This document shows positions 5,953 to 61,753 of a DNA stretch of 64,000 bases, piece by piece (position 1 is the first letter of the stretch; each line of letters opens with the position of its first letter). The position numbers and the translations under genes are program-made. The DNA comes from Eledone cirrhosa. Its lineage: Eukaryota. The stretch spans positions 49,042,001 to 49,106,000 of the forward strand of contig OZ024746.1 of NCBI GenBank assembly GCA_964016885.1, in the 5' to 3' direction. Below the pieces are notes generated by a model. The model had not been told where the DNA came from and ran no database searches. It was given only the letters and a program-made list of their open reading frames with translations.

Positions 5953-6160
5953 TTTCTGAATTTGTTTACCAAGATTCTTTATCTGAAAACGTGTGTTGAA
6001 ACCGATATTGTTATGCTTTGGGAGGGTCATGTTGCCAATAAGAAACACACGCACCAGTTGCTTTCACTCCAATTTATTATAAATTAAATTTATAAATTTA
6101 AGAATTTATAAATTTCCGGTTGGTTGGTTGGTTCCACAACCGGACGGTTGTTCATATATT

Positions 6161-6203
6161 GTTAAATTTCTTTCGTCACACATTCTGTGACCTCTTCAGT
6201 AAC
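6161..6203 (-). ncRNA. Hammerhead-like motif, minimal type I
   Basis: GUUA-CUGAAGA-G-GUCACA gaaug UGUGAC-GAAA-gaaa-UU-UAAC. Confidence 0.55.
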
Positions 6204-7824
6204 TGGGGATTCTTTTCTTTATTTTTGTGCCTCCCTTTGTTCTGTCCTACGCTATCTTGTTTTTGTGTGTGTTGTGTGCTTAGTTTGCGCATGTGTTACA
6301 TCCGGGTGTCTGTGTGTGTTTATATTTGTTTATTTATTTGTTTATTTAGATGTTGCTGGTTGGTTGTTTGTTCTATGTGTGTGTGTGTTTTAATTTTATC
6401 CTTAATTGTAAGTTGTGATGTTGCTATTCCATTCATGTTTTCTATTTAATTTTGGATGGAGTTCATTTATGTTTATTGCCTCTGTGATTTGTCTAAACAT
6501 TGCGTCTTTTTTGTGTGTAGATTCTATTTTTATTTCTATGTTCTCTAATTTACCCTTAGGTTCTATTTTAGCATGTTGTTGGAGTACAGATGATTCTTTT
6601 CTATCTTGAAGCTCTCGCCGGTGTTCATTTATCCGTTCTCCTATACTACGAGCTGTCTCACCTATGTACACTATATTCTTATCTCAACATTGTCCTTCAG
6701 TAAATATTATGCTATATACTACTATCTAGTTTTACGGTTAATATGGGGGCTTAGTTTACAGATTATACATTTCTATTAACCTTATTCCTACTTCTTTCTG
6801 TTCTATTCCAAAATTTGCTCCTATACAAGGGGCAGGTCCCATTTGTATTATTATTTACCATGATTTCATATTTGGTTCTGGCTTCTCTATATACTCTGAT
6901 GTTATCTCTCTGATTGTAACCAGAGAACTGCATACGGTGGATGAAGTATTGTATGTGTCTCTCTAGTTCTTTGGGGTTGCACATGCGGGACACGTTTCTC
7001 ATCACCCGAAAATTTTGGAATAGAATAGAAAGAACTAGGAATAAGGTTAATAGAATAAACTCATGGTATGATAGCAATAGATACCAGAGTGTAATGTTCA
7101 TCAATACAACCCCTAGAGGTGAATTAGCTTACAAATTTAGAAGAGCCCTATATAAACATAAACTCAATATTAAGATAGTAGAAAGACCAGGTACCTCCAT
7201 AAAAACACTTATTAGCAATACATACCCTTTTCAAAGACCTCCCTATATAGATAAGAAATGTATAATCTGTAAACTAAGCCCCATATTAACTGTAAAACTA
7301 GAAATGTAGTATATAGCATAAGATGTACTGAAGGACAATATCGAGATAAGAATATAGTGTACATAGGTGAGACAGCTCGTAGTATAGTAGAACGGATAAA
7401 TGAACACTGGCGAGAGCTTCAAGATAGAAAAGAATCATCTGCACTCCACCAACATGCTAAAATAGAACATAAGGGTAAATTAGAGAACATAGAAATAAAA
7501 ATAGAATCTACACACAGAAAAGACGCAATGTTTAGACAAATCACAGAGGCAATAAACATAAATGAACTCCAACCAAAATTAAATAGAAAACATGAATGGA
7601 ATAGCAATATCACAACTTACAATTAGGGACAAAATTAAAACACACACACACATAGAACAAACAACCAACCAGTAACATGTAAATGAACAAATAAATAAAG
7701 AAATAAAAACACACACAGACACCCGGATGTAACACATGCGCAAACTAAGCACACAACACACACAAAAACAAGATGGCGTAGGACAGAACAAAGGGAAGCA
7801 CAAAAACAAAGAAAATAATCCCCA

Positions 7825-7867
7825 GTCACTGAAGAGGTCACAGAATGTGTGACGAAAGAACTTTGAC
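7825..7867 (+). ncRNA. Hammerhead-like motif, minimal type I
   Basis: GUCA-CUGAAGA-G-GUCACA gaaug UGUGAC-GAAA-gaac-UU-UGAC; stem I covaries with the 6161 copy. Confidence 0.55.
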
Positions 7868-7991
7868 AATATATGAACAACCAACCGGAAATTTATAAAT
7901 TTTAAAATTTATAAATTTAATTTATAATAAATTGGAGTGAAAGCAACTGGTGCGTGTGTTTCTTATTGGCAACATGACCCTCCCAAAGCAT

Positions 7992-8957: not shown

Positions 8958-9193
<236 letters not shown>

Positions 9194-20059: not shown

Positions 20060-20105
<46 letters not shown>

Positions 20106-20312
20106 TTAGTCGTTTGGAAGCCTCGACAATGCAAATGGGTAAATCTCCGGGTAACAAGATCCGGTGGTGGAGAGAGAGATGTAAGTGGGTGTACGTTGAG
20201 ATGCGTGGTGTGTAAAGATGTGTAAATGTGTAGAAGAAAGAAGGCAAGAGTATAAAGGATAAAATTAAAATAACAACACAAGAGAGAGTTACCTTGGGAG
20301 AGATTTAATAGT

Positions 20313-20348
20313 CCCTATATATTTCGAATTCACATCCATCAACTGGGG
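20313..20348 (-). ncRNA. Hammerhead-like fold with CAGUUGA core (copy 1)
   Basis: CCC-CAGUUGA-U-GGAU guga AUUC-GAAA-UAUA-UA-GGG. Confidence 0.55.
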
Positions 20349-20920
20349 TTTTTTTTTCCGGGGTAAAGGTTCTCTGTCGGACAGGTGCGAAACGCGTCCT
20401 CCGCTGTTTGTTGTTTTGAATATCTGAGGTATTCGGTAGAGCGCGTTTTTTCTGGTATTGGACTCTGGAGTGGTAGCACTGGTCGATTGCTTTAGTGATT
20501 TTCAGGAGCAAGTCCCCGGGTGCTATTGGCAGTCGATGTGTCCGCTCTGAGAGTGTCCGCTTATGGACGTGTAATTGGCGGTTGAGATGTCTCAGGATCT
20601 GTTTAATACATGTGCGATGTATGGGGTTAGTGGTGTTTTGGAAACCTGGTGTACGTAGGCTTACTGGTAAGCGGATGTTCCTGATGGTATTGGGGATGAC
20701 ATCGTTTTTTAGGCAGCGTTTCAGGAAAATAATTTGACAGCCAGCGTTGGCCCATTTCTCCGACAGTCTAAACAGTTCCCTTACGCATGCAAACAATTCC
20801 CGGCTCAGGTGTAAGGATAAGAGAGTATTGAAGTTTGCTTGAAGCATTGTGGAATAATAAATAAATATCTTTAAGTCGTTTGGAAGCCTCGACAAGGCAA
20901 ATGGGTAAATCTCCGGGTAA

Positions 20921-23457
20921 CTGTCGGAGAAATGGGCCAACGCTGGCTGTCAAATTATTTTGCTGAAACGCTGCCTAAAAAACGATGTCATCCCCAACAC
21001 CATCAGGAACATCCGCTTACCAGTAAGCCTACGTACACCAGGTTTCCAAAACACCACTAACCGCATACATCGCACGTGTATTAAACAGATCCTGAGACAT
21101 CTCAACCGCCAATTACACGTCCATAAGCGGACACTCTCAGAGCGGACACATCGATTGCCAATGGCACCCGGGGACTTGCTCCTGAAAATCACTAAAGCAA
21201 TCGACCAGTGCTACCACTCCAGAGTCTAATACCAGAAAAAACGGCTCAAGCGAAAATATGAGTGGATCTTGTCGAAACGCCACAACAGGAACATCGACAC
21301 TAACGAACAGACGGACCAGAACCACGTGGGAAACAACAACTTAACAACCGCCACCGCTGCATCCACCAACACCGAGCCATACCTCAACGATGCGACGCAC
21401 CTGGTCACCGACCTAACCGGCACTCTCACGAGCGACGAGCTGAAACTCCTACACCTCGGACCCAAGTTCATCGTCTCACAACGTCTCGACGACAGACTCA
21501 AACTCAACATCGAGGCCAACTTTTGTCGAGCCGCTTACCAACTTAAATGGGTGACCGCCATCAACAGCGCCACAGAAAATAACAGCGCCCACGTAACCCA
21601 CCCCAAGTTCCCCACTTACCACCCGAAAACCCAATGCACGCCCCCACCCACCAACCACGAACTCGACACTAAACTCATCAGGCTAAAACACTCCATCTCG
21701 GATATACTTCACAAACACACACGCACAACACATAACCCCACCAAATCTCAACTCACCACTCTCTCCAATCTAAAATCGAAGAACCTCATCTATCTCCCCT
21801 CCGACAAGGGAAAAGAATTCTGCGTCATCAGCAGAGAGGCCTACAACACCCTGGCCCTCCAACACCTTGACGATGACAACCTCTACTACAAGGTGACGGG
21901 AATCACTCTCGCGCAGATAGAAGAGCACATCAACGCCGCCTGGACCAACATCTGCGACCGGCGGAAGCTCCCGAAGAAGCTGAGATACAACCTCCTCACG
22001 AGGAACAGCAGACTACCCGCCTTCTACCACCTCTTGAAAACACACAAACAGGGACCCGACCTGAAGATCAGGCCCATCGTATGGAGCGTGGAGGGACCAC
22101 TCTACAAAATGTCATGGCTCCTAGCCAGAATACTCAAACCCATCTTAGACACCTTGCCGGGACACGTTAACAGCTCCGAGGAGGTGTTGAAGCGCCTGCA
22201 TCAAATGGATCCCGACACCAGAAGGAATAACAGATATGCCTTCAGCCTTGATGTAGTCGCTCTCTACACCTCGGTCCCGGCACTCCCGGCCGTCAATATA
22301 CTGATGGAACGCGTCCAATCCACCGATTTTCACTGCTTCGGGCTCACAACCACTGACATCCACCAACTCCTATCCATCGTCGTCGACAACACCTACTTCG
22401 GATTCCTTGACCAAACATACCAACAAACCTCGGGATTGCCCATGGGATCAAGCCTATCAGGTGTGCTAGCGATCTCTTACATGGACAACCTCGAACGCAA
22501 GGCACTCAACGCCTGCCACCCCAATGTCGTAGCCTTTTTCTCAAGGTACGTGGACGATATCCTCATCCTCACATCTTCCCAAGACACGGCGAACAGAATC
22601 TATGAGACGTTCAACAACACGGACGAGAACATTGACTTCAGTGTTGAACACCCCAACGAAGACGGGTCACTTGCCTTCCTCGACTTCCGAATCAACATCA
22701 CGAAACAGGGAAGGACCCACTGCAACTTCTACTGAAAGGCAGCCTGCAGGGACCTGTTTGTTCACTACAAGTCCGCCCTCCCTAACAGTGCCAAAAGAGG
22801 ATACATCACGAACGAGATCGCGCGAATCAAAAACAGATGCAGCGATCCCGCGAGTGGTGTCACTCATACCAAGCGATTCCTCGAGGTGCTGGAGACGAAC
22901 GGGTACCCTACCTCGATCACAGACAGAATAGGAGACACCAGACACATAAGACAGAGAGGCCCCCAAGGCAAGTGCTTCCATAAAATTCCACATCTGGGCG
23001 AGAATACCACCAATGCTATCCGCAAGGCTATACGGAGGGAGGGCCTCGACATCACCTGGCCCACTCGGGCCCCTCCCTGCAAAGATGCCTCTCCAAGAAA
23101 CCCGGGAAATCTACTGACGCATGCTCCCTCAGAGACTGCCCGATACGCCATCCGAACTGTTGCCTACGCACATACGTCGTGTATAAGATAGAATGTGACA
23201 GGTGCAACCAATACTACATAGGTAGCACAATCCGACCTTTGCACATCCGGATCAAGGAACACACTAAAACCAGGGCCTCGTCTTTCCGGAAACACATAGA
23301 CAAATGCGGAAACAAAGACGGAAGGCCCATTGTCACAATTCTAGCGACTGAAAGAAACGTCGGCACGTGACGTATCAAGGAAGCACTTTTTATCAAACGC
23401 CTGCAACCGCAAATAAACAACCGATTAGAGAGAAGCGAAATGAGATGGCTGGTTTAA
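20921..23457 (+). pseudogene. PLE reverse transcriptase-GIY-YIG endonuclease ORF, disrupted
   Basis: PSDKG, FYHLLKTHK, IRPIV, FSLDVVALYTSVP, QTSGLPMGSSLS, RYVDD, FLDF, NGYP, VVYKIECDRC..YIGST.R.L..RIKEH; stops at 21227 (CAA in the inverted copy), 22733 and 23368; 1-nt frameshift near 23055. Confidence 0.95.
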
Positions 23458-23834
23458 GTTAACAAACGATGTAGCAACACACAACACACGTGCACACAAA
23501 CGAGACAACTACACACACACACACAGTAGCATGCCACCATACGAACATACTACACTGCCAATACAGAGGAACAAGGCAACTACACACGCACACACACACT
23601 CAAGCGAGACAACAACACACGCACACACACACACAGTAACATTTAACAAACAGGCAGAGAATGGACTGACAGCTAGCGCCACCTCACTCCCTCATTCGGC
23701 CGCTGACCTCTGCCCGACCGACGCCATTTCCGGCGCACGCGCGCTCTGCCGAATACCTCAGATATTCAAAACAACAAACAGCGGAGGACGCGTTTCGCAC
23801 CTGTCCGACAGACAACCTTTACCTCGGAAAAAAA

Positions 23835-23870
23835 CCCCAATTGATGGATATGAATCAGAAATATATTGGG
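23835..23870 (+). ncRNA. Hammerhead-like fold with variant core (copy 2, mutated)
   Basis: CCC-CAAUUGA-U-GGAU auga AUCA-GAAA-UAUA-UU-GGG in the 3' pLTR. Confidence 0.45.
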
Positions 23871-24127
23871 ACTATTAAATCTCTCCCAAGGTAACTCTCT
23901 CTTGTGTTGTTATTTTAATTTTATCCTTTATACTCTTGCCTTCTTTCTTCTACACATTTACACATCTTTACACACCACGCATCTCAACGTACACCCACTT
24001 ACATCTCTCTCTCCACCACCGGATCTTGTTACCCGGAGATTTACCCATTTGCATTGTCGAGGCTTCCAAACGACTTAAAGATATTTATTTATTATTCCAC
24101 AATGCTTCAAGCAAACTTCAATACTCT

Positions 24128-25002: not shown

Positions 25003-25579
25003 GGTAAATTTCTTTAAGTCGCTTGGAAGCCTCGACAATGCATATGGGTAAATCTCCGGGTAACAGGATCCGGTGGTAGAGAGAGAGATGTAAGTGGGTG
25101 TACGTTGAGATGCGTGGCGTGTATAAGACGTGTAGAGGAATGAAGGATAAAGCGTAATGGAAAAAAATAAAAATAACAACACGAGAAAGAGTTACCTTGG
25201 GAGAGATTTAATTGTCCCTATATATTTCGGATTCACATCCATCAACTGGGGGTATTTCTCCGGGGTGGGGGAAAGGTTGTCTGTCGGAAAGGTGCGAAAT
25301 GTATCCTCCGCTGTTCGTTGTTTTGAATATCTGAGGTATTCAGCAGAGCGCGCGTACGCGTGAAATGGGGACGGTCAGGCAGAGGTCAGCGGCCGAAGTA
25401 GTTCTTTCAATTGTGGGAGTGGGGTGGCGCTAGTTGTCAGTCCATTCTCTGCCTGTTTGTTGAATGTTATTGTGTGTGTGTGTGTGTGTGTGTTGTTGTC
25501 TCGCTTGAGTGTGTGTGTGCGTGTGTTGTTGCCTTGTTTCTCTGTATTGGCCTTGTAGTATGTTCGTATGGTGGAATGC

Positions 25580-25651
<72 letters not shown>

Positions 25652-25742
25652 GTCGCTGTCTCGCTTGTGCGTGTGTTGCTGCATCGTTTGTTAACTGAAA
25701 CCAACCACCTCATTTCGCTTCTCTCGGATCGGTTGTTTAATT
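24998..25742 (-). mobile_element. 5'-truncated diverged copy of the 20.1-kb PLE (last ORF codons plus pLTR)
   Basis: Reverse complement of 23413-24090 with scattered substitutions (NNRSERSEMRWLV). Confidence 0.92.
25216..25252 (-). ncRNA. Hammerhead-like fold with CAGUUGA core (copy 3)
   Basis: CCC-CAGUUGA-U-GGAU guga AUCC-GAAA-UAUA-UA-GGG; perfect stem II with GNRA loop. Confidence 0.6.
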
Positions 25743-25744
25743 GT

Positions 25745-28230
25745 GGCGTACTACACACAGGCATTATGTGATGCAGGCTTGTATCCGTGTATACAACAGG
25801 TAACAGTAACAAAACAGTGATATAAAAATATTAACAATCACTTTTCCAAAGAGGAGTAGGTGTAGAGTATATAGTCATGACTGATGGTGTACACATTCAA
25901 TGTGACGCCCGCCACGGTCGCCATGGGGCATGGCACCTTCTCTGGAGTGTGCTGTTCTAGACGTTTTGTGCACAGGTCCGGGCGGCAGTCGGCCCCGTAT
26001 CAGCCGGTCCCGACCCATGCATTGCATCTTCCAATGTTGCGTGCCCGGTCACGTGCGCACCCGGTCTACATATGATTGCCCCGCGGGTCGGACGTCGTCA
26101 TCATGGTATGTCGTCAGGTCCCCTAATCCCGCTAGACCAATCGGGTCTGTACTTTCTCATTCTCGTGCCCCCTGCTGCGTCACCCGCCGGATTCCATGCT
26201 GCAAAAGTGCATCTTCTCTGGTGTCTACATGTCATGATAATTTCAGACTTCAGGTTGACGGCGCCATCCTTCAGTCTGATTATCTCCATGGCCTCCTGTA
26301 GGCACAGTCGGCACTTTCTAATTCCGGCCGAATAGGCACGCACGTGGCGAACGATACTCCATTCCAGGGCGTATGGGGTGCCGTGGTCTTTCATGTCCCA
26401 CACGAGGTCCGCTAACCTAGTGGAGTGCCTTTTGCTACGGTCCCTGAAGGAATTCGTGTGATAATACATCCACGATTTAAAGGTCGTGGATGTTGCGCCT
26501 ATGTAGGTTCGATGCGCATTCTGGGTCGTCACCACACACTTGTATACCAGGTCCTTCATTAAGCATTTTCCCTGTAGGGGGCACTGGGTGCCCGCTCTAC
26601 AGTTGCAGGTTCTGCTGTCAATTCTTGTGCGTCCGATGTCCGGGCCCTGATCTGTAATGGCCCTCTCAAGGTTCTCAGTGAGCTGCACCGCCGCCGCACT
26701 TGTGTCCCAACCCCCATGCCCCTATTTCCCTCCCGATGTTGGACCATATCGCCCTCGACGGGTGCTCTGGTCGCCTCGGGGGCCGGGTTGTCATTTGAAG
26801 GCAGGTCCCTAGGTGGTTCTCCGCGCTCCGAAACATGGTCACTCTGTCGGCGCGGTTGCCGGCCAGTGTGCGCCTTCTTCACCGCGTTAGTTCTAGCCAT
26901 GTAGTCGGCCATATTCGGCGCCGTGGAGAAGGAAAATTTCACCGTGTGGCGGTTGAAGATTTTGTGGTATTTGTTTGTCGTCGGAAAGCACTCATCCAGC
27001 GCTCGGAAGAAAAGTCCTGGCACGTTGGTGCGTACATGTTTAGAATAAGGCGCATTGAACCAGGTAACGGCCTTAGATAAGTTCCTTTGTGTGCGTGGAT
27101 TCATGTTGTTGTGTCTAGGGTCGTTGCCGGCCCAGTGCTCTGCCCCACCTCAATTTCGTCTCGTGTGTTGTCCCTGTCTATTAGTCTGCTACGTTCGTCG
27201 TGGTTATGTTCTACCGTTGTAAATTTACGTCGTTCTATGTAGTCATCTATACGTCTATTCCCCTTAGGTCTATGTGATGTTATTGTCAGTGCTGTGGCAC
27301 TAGAACTAGGCTGTTCGTGCTCTGTGGCGTGTGCCCCGTTTTTATTTGTCGAAGATCTGTCCAAGGTTCCAGTTTCCACCGAGTATGCAGTGTGCGTGCA
27401 CACCGGGTGGTCTGGCTCCCATGGGTGCCTTAGTTTTATCTCTGGTCGGTCGTGTGCCATTAAAGTTAGTATTGTTGTTATTTGTGTTCCTGGCTACTAC
27501 TACTGGGTCAATTTTTCTACCTAGGGAGGCGCCCCCACTATTGTTAGGCTCTACTCTAACATATCGTTAGGCTCTACTCTATCTGCGGTATATACTATGG
27601 TGTCTTTGTAACCGGCCCTGCGCAGTGCCTCATTATAATATTCGGCGTGCTGTTTAAACACTTCTGCGTTAAACGACAAGGTGCATACGCGTTTTGACAC
27701 CCCTTTAACTATGGCTTCTATGACTGACTTAGGGTGATTCGATTGCCTGTTCACATACTGCAGGTTTTCGTTGGGCTTATGGTACGGTCTGTGGATTTCC
27801 GTATTCATTTCGAAGGTAACGTCCAGGAAATTGAGAACCAGTCAATTACCTCCTTAGTGGAGGTCAATAGGCTAAGCTTAGTTTTGTTTCTAAGTACCGG
27901 TATTATCCTATCTATAATATTCTTACTGGTCTTTCCTAGGTCGGATTTGGAGGGTGCTATTAACCTAACCGGTAGTTTAGTTTTAAAGTCTAATTTGTGG
28001 TCCTTAATAGATATACGTGGTCTTCTAGGTACATATACCTCGGTTCTATCCTCTAGTCCTAGCCCCGTCAGTATACTTTTTGCCGTGGCGTTAATACCAT
28101 CTAAATTTGTCTGTCCAGTGGTCCTATAGTTTTTCCTAATCTCCTTTCCGAGACATTCGTGTATATGTGTGGATATGCGTATGCATGTTAAGTTGTCCTT
28201 TCTTGTTTTCGTTTTTGTTTTGTGTGTATA
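25745..28230 (-). mobile_element. Naiad-type PLE with RT palm deleted
   Basis: ISIKDHK.DF....PVRLIAPSKSDLGKTSK; NFLDVTF; PYHKPN....YVN.QSNHP; TWFNAPYS; CNCR....CPLQGKC...LVYKC...YIGAT.TTFK; CRLC..E; TCRH. Confidence 0.88.
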
Positions 28231-28253
28231 CATCTATATATATATACTTATAT

Positions 28254-33865: not shown

Positions 33866-34348
33866 GGGGTATGTATAAGTGTGTATGTGGGGGTTTGTGT
33901 CTCTGTAGGTATGTATACGTGAATGTATGTATTTATGTATATAAATATATAAAAAGAAAATGTCAGATTGACAGATAGAAATGCTTATTTGAATGTTACA
34001 AAGTTTGGTAAAAACTTCTAACAATGTTATATATATATATATGTATATAGTGACGAAACATAAGTCAATTGCATGAACTCATAATCCTTTATTTACTGCT
34101 ATATATATTTCGATGAAAGCCATTGAATGGCTATGACCTCATCAGGCAGTTTGTCAGTTCTTAGATATGCCAGCTCTGTGTTTATGGTGTTTATATATAT
34201 ATATATATATAATCCTATTTCAATTTTATACGTATTACTTAAAGTATATATTAGACCAATAACGATTGTTTTCTCAATTTTTATATATTGTTATATATTG
34301 ATAAAGCCAAATACACTATACGTTGACCAATATACTCACACTGGCACC

Positions 34349-59019: not shown

Positions 59020-61023
59020 TTAAGGCAAGCGGAAGTGTCCTCTCAAGTTTAGCAAAATCCTATACTTTTCTGTGGTACACAAAGAACAATTCTTTGTGCC
59101 CCTTTGGTACTCCCTCGAATGGTCTAATATAGACCAATCAATAGAGTACGGGATGTTACTATCCTTGAGTTCCCACACCTTACTTGCGAGGGCCGTTGAT
59201 GTTCGTTTATCGGAGTGCTTAAAAGAAGCGACATGTGAGTAAAATCTGGTTTTAAACCTGTCCTGGATCATACCGACATATCGCTCACTCCTGGCTGGCT
59301 GGCTGGTTGTTGATTACTGGTGTTATCATAGCCTCATAAACGACAGATTTAGTGTTACATCTACCCTGCAATGGGCATTCGCCCGGCTTCCTGCAACTGC
59401 ATCTGGATTTATTCTCGTCCGGTTTGAGCTGGGTGATTTTGGACTTCATAGATGGGCAACAAGAGTAGCTGATCTTGACTACGTTCCTATTAAATATCTT
59501 ATAATATCTATGATTAGGAGGAAAATGTTTGTCTAATAGTTCAAGGAATTTCCTTCCTACATTAGTTTTGACAGTTAGAAGAAGGGGGGTGGGTGAACCA
59601 AATAATCTTCCTTTTCCTGTTATTGTGGTTAGTTTTAGGGGGGGGGGGAGTAGGTAAATAAGAATTTTTTTCTGTAAAACCGCTGTTCTTAAGGGCTTTA
59701 TTATAATAAGGTAGAAATCCTACGGCTAATGTTAGGAATAAGATTATTAAAAACTTTAGGGGGATGGCAAGACTCTTTGTGTATATACCTAAGATTTTCG
59801 TTAGGTTTATGGTAGGGTTTAAAAGAGGCAGTAAGTAAATCAGATTAATATCAAGAAAGTTAGCAATAGTAAGGTTCGTATCTATAGTAATTTTAAGGTT
59901 AAGATTAGCAAAAGTATTGATTAAATCTTTATGGAATTTATCAAGGTCATGGCCGTTGGTGGTATGAGAAACTGCTAATCCGTCATCACGGTATAAACCG
60001 ATATTATGGGACGGAAATTTCTCTTTGAGGGTGTGGAGAAGGAACAATCCAACTAAGTCACACACATCCGCACTGTCATATGAACCCATTGCGACATCAA
60101 AAGAGTTTTCAGGGTTTGACTTTTTAACCTAAATATTATCATTAGTAAAAAGTAAAGTTTTTCTAGCATGGAGGATAATATCTTCTTCTAATTTAGAAAT
60201 ATTAATGGAGGTCTTGCAAAATCTAAGGCCTTAGTTAATAAGGAAACAGTAATAGAAGGGTAAAAATCGACAATATCAAACTGGGTAAATCTACACTTAT
60301 TTTTACCTTGTATGTTATTGAACCAAGAAATAACAGAGGAAGTATTTAGCCACTGTGATAGGTCAGTGTTAGTTCTGATTTGGAGAATTATTTTTCTTAA
60401 GATATTCTTACTTACAAGGCCAACCTCGGATTTAGCCGGGTTAATCAATCTACAACTAGGTCGTTAGTAAAGTCCTATTTATGGTCTTTAAGGGTAATAT
60501 ATTCTTTACGCTTAGCTAAGCTTTCAATCCGGTTATCTATTTGTAAAGAACTAGCTAGTTCTTTAGCTTCTTTATTGATAGTATTGTAGGTATTATTATT
60601 AGTTAATTGATATTTATTGGTAATACTATTAGTTAAAAGTTGGTTATACAAAGTACTATTAACTTCAAAGAGGTTTTTAGTTTTATCAGAAAGAACGAAA
60701 GAGTTTGTAGAATTTCTAAAATTAGAAATATCGTTAGAAAGTTTGGTTTGAAAGTTATTATTGTACTTACGAAACTTGATATCATTAATTAGATTAACGA
60801 GGTCTAATTCGAAGCTGGCCATGTCTTTAATTCTAGGTGGATATTTACGAGATTTGATGTCAAAACAATCTTAGTATCAGCCCTGAATAGTCCGTCGTAA
60901 ACCATTGCCTTCCATCTCATTCTTTTAACGACTTGTTCGATTTTGTCTATGAGGATTTTGGTGTAAGTTGTGTTGGAAGGAGTGGGTATATTTTTGATTG
61001 AATAATCCAAATCATAAAGGTCC
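59020..61023 (-). pseudogene. Naiad-type PLE RT-GIY-YIG ORF, near full length but disrupted
   Basis: DYSIKNIP; KRMRWKA; SDKT.NLF; ITLKDHK; INPAKSEVG; QWLNT..VI.WF; FDIVDFYPSI; FDVAMGSYDSADVCDLVG; GLYRDDGL; CSCR...CPLQGRC; YVG...FKTRF.SH; CSLC.TEK; several stops and frameshifts. Confidence 0.92.
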
Positions 61024-61693: not shown

Positions 61694-61753
61694 TTTCATT
61701 CTGAGGATTGAAAGCAAAACCTTTTGCTTTTAAGAAACCACTGGTAAATGGAA
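61694..61753 (+). ncRNA. Type I hammerhead ribozyme motif, canonical core
   Basis: UUUCAUU-CUGAGGA-UUGAAAGCAAA accu UUUGCUUUUAA-GAAA-CCACUGG-UA-AAUGGAA; predicted cleavage after GUA (61746). Confidence 0.9.

Follow-up and report, generated by a model that had tools for sequence, protein, structure and literature searches.

What becomes of a hammerhead-shaped RNA in a Penelope-like retroelement (PLE) when two bases of its core are lost? The CUGA uridine turn is held to be indispensable in hammerheads, and the role of hammerheads in PLEs is itself unsettled: they are nearly universal there, yet slow and dispensable in vitro. The question is raised by a window of 64,000 nt of Eledone cirrhosa DNA (contig OZ024746.1, positions 49,042,001 to 49,106,000), the whole stretch analysed here, for which an earlier note had described a hammerhead-shaped motif with the core CAGUUGA instead of CUGANGA.

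The motif exists as described, with two copies on the minus strand and a mutated version on the plus strand (Table 1). The location given in the earlier note was right, but its span of 25216..25252 takes in one spare C and omits the strand. A search with the motif pattern at up to three mismatches returned three matches in the window, with 0.00 expected from 100 shuffles. The C3-G8 pair, G5, A9, G12, A13, A14, the A15.1-U16.1 pair and H17 are all present, and U4 and A6 of the CUGA uridine turn are absent, so that 2 of 11 core bases are off; the decayed copy carries G5A, C11.1A and A17U together with a change in loop II. The motif is in sense to the PLE open reading frame (ORF), and the candidate splice donor AAG/GUAACU, previously noted just after it, is indeed found about 20 nt downstream. 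In DNA contigs of one study, 25208-25250 has no alternative letter at 1% or more, an agreement that is not independent because these contigs possibly come from the assembly's own material.

Table 1. Coordinates of the motif copies and of their host element in the window
Feature	Position	Strand	Remarks
Hammerhead homologue, core CAGUUGA (U4A, A6U)	25216..25251	minus	subfamily B copy; minimal type I
Predicted cut site	between 25219 and 25218	minus	
Variant core C3-A4-G5-U6-U7-G8-A9	25242..25248	minus	
Stem I, 5′ strand CCC	25251-25249	minus	
Stem I, partner GGG	25218-25216	minus	
Additional U after core	25241	minus	
Stem II, GGAU	25240-25237	minus	followed by GUGA loop
Stem II, AUCC	25232-25229	minus	
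G12-A13-A14-A15.1	25228-25225	minus	
Palindromic helix III, AUAUAU	25225-25220 (feature 25220..25225)	minus	
A17	25219	minus	
Candidate splice donor AAG/GUAACU	25190..25198	minus	GU at 25195; kept in all subfamilies
Second motif copy	20313..20348	minus	AUUC in stem II (G-U pair); inside inverted pLTR 20091-20445
Decayed motif copy	23835..23870	plus	3′ pLTR, ~380 nt after ORF stop
RT + C-terminal GIY-YIG ORF of PLE	20921..23458	plus	RVT_1 E 7.6e-11; GIY-YIG E 1.8e-4, slightly below its curated cut-off
3′ pLTR	23740..24120	plus	two 3′-end clusters (~24081-24092; ~24120 or beyond) define tail; start codon 24102
Inverted 5′ pieces of same element	20091..20921 (20091-20445, 20432-20767, 20817-20921)	minus	
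5′-truncated second-subfamily copy (ORF end, 3′ UTR, pLTR)	25005..25746	minus	81% identical to 23407-24087

All three motif copies sit in pLTR sequence of one PLE family, and the placement expected of a pLTR hammerhead is borne out by their sense orientation and by a motif at the same place in a sister family. The element has the features of PLEs with a C-terminal endonuclease, namely RT and GIY-YIG in a single ORF, pLTRs, an inverted 5′ copy and a tail of 30-40 nt. Its ORF copy in the window is 5′-truncated and interrupted by stops and frame shifts; two genomic copies with an intact ORF of 874-875 aa were checked, and both carry CAGUUGA. As in the Nematis clade described by Craig 2021 (PMC8557442), the RT is followed by GIY-YIG with a Cys-rich linker, and SDKGxEF, KTHK and GPxxxxSW match rows of the Nematis alignment in that paper when compared by eye. 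By this motif match the element is Nematis-like and may belong to that clade.

The register of the motif was settled with its relatives. The sister family in the same genome, whose ORF is ~64% identical in DNA, has different stems and the core CCGAAGA at the same place (30 of 34 motif matches in extracted loci, with CUGAAGA in 3). Among 35 metagenome loci of related elements, most of the others being short or ending near the ORF, we found eight convincing motifs, seven with CUGANGA and one with CCGAAGA; in six relatives the motif lies 185-434 nt past the ORF match, and CAGUUGA was in none of the 35 in the pLTR position. An alternative register with UUGAUGG as the core was rejected, because the sister CCGAAGA and the metagenome CUGANGA motifs align base for base with CAGUUGA. 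In the RT tree the modern and sister families form one group (100/100), nested among relatives with canonical cores, so the variant core is derived.

The earlier note had left room for stems that neither hold nor covary across copies. Instead, 99.1% of 110 cells for hammerhead pairs are paired in an alignment of 11 rows, which omits the two modern window rows because the aligner shifted both by one column, and 33 cells are changed on both sides; none of 500 shuffles paired as highly, in a control that ignores relatedness (4 of the 11 rows are of the same lineage), and slid controls reached 26-44%. Stems I-III thus covary across families. Within the A6U lineage, a search for compensatory change at pair 10.2-11.2 only gave three matches and no family, so that the covariation comes only from other families. 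The minimal type I features are all there, with stems I and II, G10.1-C11.1, an additional nucleotide after A9 and a palindromic helix III. Judged by its sequence, the motif is truly homologous to the minimal hammerhead of PLEs but lacks one of the features that define a hammerhead, the CUGA turn, for which reason we do not count it among the proven ribozymes. Its folding energy is not significant (z of -0.34 and +1.08), that of the sister family being no better (z of -0.12), and an unconstrained dimer fold prediction did not yield a hammerhead dimer. Rfam gave no hammerhead for the motif stretch alone at E up to 10, only one weak unrelated match, and none for the whole window among the 150 of 236 matches listed, from which the canonical hammerhead motifs of the window are likewise absent.

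Several further PLE-like elements and hammerheads were seen in the data. The sister family has many long open frames, with CCGAAGA in its ORF-rich copies and CUGAAGA in many others; these many further CUGAAGA copies in the genome reflect either CpG decay or a second subfamily. A different, broken PLE at ~6102-7908 with GIY-YIG fragments carries canonical CUGAAGA hammerheads at 7829 (plus) and 6199 (minus), one per pLTR copy and with a 6-bp stem II, and the same family was met at one extracted genomic locus. At 34145 (minus) lies a type I hammerhead-like motif with a canonical core, whose stem I reads CUGC/GCAG and whose helix III is a UA repeat. A repeat at 61701 (plus), 56534 (minus), ~24286 (plus) and 58527 (minus), possibly SINE-like or PLE-derived, has a canonical CUGANGA core, a stem II of 11 bp and a helix III that is short. 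ORF fragments at 26101-28233 and 59285-60870 (both minus) have the look of Naiad-type PLEs by eye, with a CxC motif and GIY-YIG-like and RT pieces, and 8960-9191 is MITE-like, with inverted repeat arms of ~40 nt around a microsatellite. Another abundant genomic family has a canonical minimal hammerhead with CUGAUGA, a GGAC stem II and an ACGU palindrome.

The variant core is the state of the amplifying element, which follows from open-core counts, from copies picked by RT protein and from the intact-ORF copies. A genome search with the seven core positions left open returned 2,350 exact matches (reversed control, 0); by hand count of the 100 matches listed, 88 have CAGUUGA and 12 are scattered mutants. 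Among 30 loci picked by RT protein, 29 have the 3′ motif, with CAGUUGA in 26. The earlier note had asked whether the family consensus might be CUGANGA; this core occurs in none of the 100 listed matches and in none of the 29 RT-picked copies. Its argument that a core shared by two window copies is that of the active element thus held for the state of the family, whereas the order of the changes could be read only from older subfamilies genome-wide.

These older subfamilies were recovered by pattern searches (31, 312 and 97 matches) and arranged with a midpoint-rooted tree of the flanks only (127 of 191 extracted copies), in which groups were set by hand from the tree and the cores and O1 and O2 are not cleanly separated. 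From old to young, the core runs CCGACGA, CCGUCGA, CYGUUGA, CAGUUGA. Subfamily O1 retains A6 and has C or U at positions 4 and 7; because of G-to-A changes beside these positions, its cores point to an ancestral CCGACGA with CpG decay, and O1 may also hold a true CUGAUGA subgroup. O2 has CCGUCGA and O3 has CYGUUGA, mostly with U4. CAGUUGA is common to subfamily M, with a 5-nt loop and a 4-nt palindrome (AUAU), and to the modern subfamily, with a 4-nt loop and a 6-nt palindrome (AUAUAU); the helix III palindrome is AUAU in the older subfamilies and AAUU in the sister family. The direction of the ladder rests on copy divergence (medians of 21, 26, 15, 13 and 6% for O1, O2, O3, M and modern) and on A6 in all outgroups. 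On these sequences, A6U preceded U4A, with position 4 passing from C, probably through U, to A. A CAGAUGA intermediate was considered and rejected, since that subfamily, when searched without prescribed core letters, carries CAGUUGA for the most part, the CAGAUGA copies being back-mutants.

Along this ladder the changes are confined to three core positions (4, 6 and 7), to loop II and to the palindrome of helix III, and C3, G5, G8, A9, G12-A15.1, U16.1, A17 and the stems never changed. We compared O2 with the modern subfamily in subsets of 10-15 copies from each group: of the scaffold and catalytic positions 0 of 25 differ, and of the flank columns 44 of 100 do (p 8e-6; upstream 34 of 56, downstream 10 of 44). 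Once positions 4 and 7 are counted in, the figure for the motif is 2 of 27 (p 3e-4 relative to the whole flank). Relative to the 45 nt immediately downstream (10 of 44 columns), where the donor block is conserved too, the excess conservation is modest, with p 0.011 for 0 of 25 and p 0.11 for 2 of 27. Because the earlier patterns had fixed stem II, we also read a sample obtained with the downstream flank only (197 matches, 70 read), and the 56 in register gave the same motif letters. In this lineage the CpGs at positions 4 and 7 have had their C replaced, and G5, G8 and the C11.1-G12 CpG have stayed; the last of these decays in dead copies (G12A in 6 of 56, C11.1T in 4 of 56).

Copy ends bear on how the motif might be used. 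The 3′ ends gather some 220-260 nt past the motif; among 90, 44 fall at ~24081-24092 (215-226 nt from the cut) and 38 at or beyond the reference end near 24120. By analogy with the PAc hammerhead element of the anole, these ends may be RT start sites. In a first sample of 5′ junctions, 16 of 68 rows lay at the predicted cut or one A before it, compared with 12-16 summed over the five positions upstream (p 0.001-0.008, classified by hand); the 16 junctions, when checked, were inversion jumps or host junctions. In a second sample (100 of 141 rows), 4-5 junctions fell on the cut and 2-8 on each position from +6 to +10, so that the cut had no more than AT-rich positions downstream. The 5′ junction excess, which did not clearly recur in the second sample, is a weak hint and no evidence of cleavage, and copies with a junction at the predicted cut are a small minority beside the 2,350 intact motifs. 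In many inverted insertions one arm begins right at the predicted cut and is linked to a different part of the element with little or no microhomology, resembling a template-end jump, and one copy has a short tandem micro-duplication around the predicted cut.

At a probability of roughly one half, we read the motif as a slowed pLTR hammerhead, assisted by dimer formation or protein and still under selection, that cuts after A17 only occasionally. Because two core letters are lost and the rest is kept, it is probably a slowed self-cutting RNA; the CUGA turn was lost stepwise, with the stems and the catalytic guanines retained, and occasional cleavage would probably take place as a dimer or with the element's protein. 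Published mutagenesis tells against this reading: in a pairwise scan of another hammerhead, every single and double mutant of the CUGA turn other than the C3-G8 swap has low activity (PMC9901934), which predicts low activity for CAGUUGA-type cores. In its favour, natural A6C and U4C hammerheads retain a low activity (PMC3088659). PLE hammerheads are described as slow, dimeric or protein-assisted, with uncut RNA as the main template (PMC4209133; PMC11167929). Here the RNA that is copied into DNA presumably passes the 3′ motif uncut, because the 3′ ends of copies lie 220-260 nt beyond it; a slow ribozyme would then yield more usable template, and rare cuts would still trim tandem or read-through transcripts. 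The stronger form, a natural hammerhead in which CAGU replaces the CUGA turn and which still cuts, either alone as a dimer or joined in an RNA-protein enzyme by the protein of the retroelement, which would stand in for the missing turn, is in our judgement unlikely.

A doubtful but serious alternative is that catalysis ended with A6U and that the fold or the sequence was kept as a non-cleaving scaffold, used by the RT-EN protein, by the machinery of the promoter or by the spliceosome. Two of 11 core bases are off and position 4 took three states, the donor block ~20 nt away is also conserved, Naiad and most Chlamys PLEs are described as spreading without hammerheads (PMC8557442), and in the anole element catalytically dead mutants insert equally well in vitro, so that insertion there did not require cleavage (PMC11167929). 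A scaffold alone does not predict that G5, G8, A9, G12-A14 and a cleavable UA are kept amid changing neighbours, nor does it sit well with 3′ ends far from the motif or with the weak junction excess at the cut in the first sample. One version of it, the RT-recognition structure proposed earlier, finds no support in these distant 3′ ends, nor in the anole element, in which RT starts in a separate AC-rich stem-loop and dead hammerheads insert (PMC11167929). A reading of UAUAUAG as a TATA box was not favoured either, because transcription starting 25-30 nt on would presumably coincide with the donor. That the motif is a dead relic, unchanged by chance or by constraint on the surrounding pLTR, would agree with stems that do not covary inside the lineage, with the folding z-scores and with the modest excess over the downstream block; we consider it quite improbable, given that 34 of 56 upstream columns have changed across six subfamilies and 0 of the 25 motif positions, and that fixation hit only the harmless side of each CpG. 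An A4-U7 pair atop C3-G8 might replace the U-turn and give a fully active core at normal PLE-hammerhead rates. In its favour, U4 contacts U7 in the structure of the full-length hammerhead, A4 appears in the ladder only after U7, and the palindrome has grown by 2 nt, to 6 nt, in the modern subfamily, the youngest, a change that would promote dimer formation. Such full activity is very improbable, however, because the part of the pairwise scan compared here, which gives no separate value for U4A-A6U, has no positive epistasis in this stretch of the core (PMC9901934), the natural A6C hammerhead is slow (PMC3088659), and the gain of a UA within a run of UA is what slippage ordinarily produces.

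The finding matters because amplification of the lineage went on, to thousands of young copies, once two core bases were gone, and because four successive natural core versions coexist with a near-canonical sister family as a ready test series. Activity that falls along the series would mean that cleavage is expendable or tuned down, and activity that holds would mean that textbooks ask too much of the core; in both cases such motifs are undercounted by CUGANGA descriptors. If CAGU does replace CUGA in a motif that still cuts, standard descriptors would overlook an entire tier of PLE ribozymes, some of them in elements described today as having no hammerheads. Reportedly the largest survey of PLE hammerhead variants, Lunse 2017 may contain a CAGUUGA core; it lay outside the literature and supplement text in which we searched for this core and did not find it.

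The closest known system is the minimal type I hammerhead of metazoan PLEs (Cervera and De la Pena 2014, PMC4209133), with which the motif shares its place in the pLTR, an additional nucleotide between 9 and 10.1, G10.1-C11.1, a short stem I, a palindromic helix III, an NUH site and an AU-rich 3′ flank; the consensus core reported there is CUGANGA, with U3-A8 as a variant, whereas the core here is CAGUUGA. The PAc hammerhead of the anole Poseidon element (Frangione 2024, PMC11167929) likewise lies in the pLTR upstream of two RT start sites, and both elements have two 3′-end sites with a short tail between them. Unlike our motif, PAc has a canonical core, needs protein for cleavage and overlaps the start codon, which here follows ~235-265 nt after the motif. 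Natural changes at positions 4 and 6 are shared with the variants of Perreault 2011 (PMC3088659), among them A6C in phage Bcep176, which is slow (under 0.1 per min), and a viroid U4C hammerhead that is poor in vitro and sufficient in vivo. Those variants are described as single changes in isolated examples, as well as insertions, with low activity, whereas in the element studied here A4 and U6 occur together, in thousands of copies and with their intermediates preserved.
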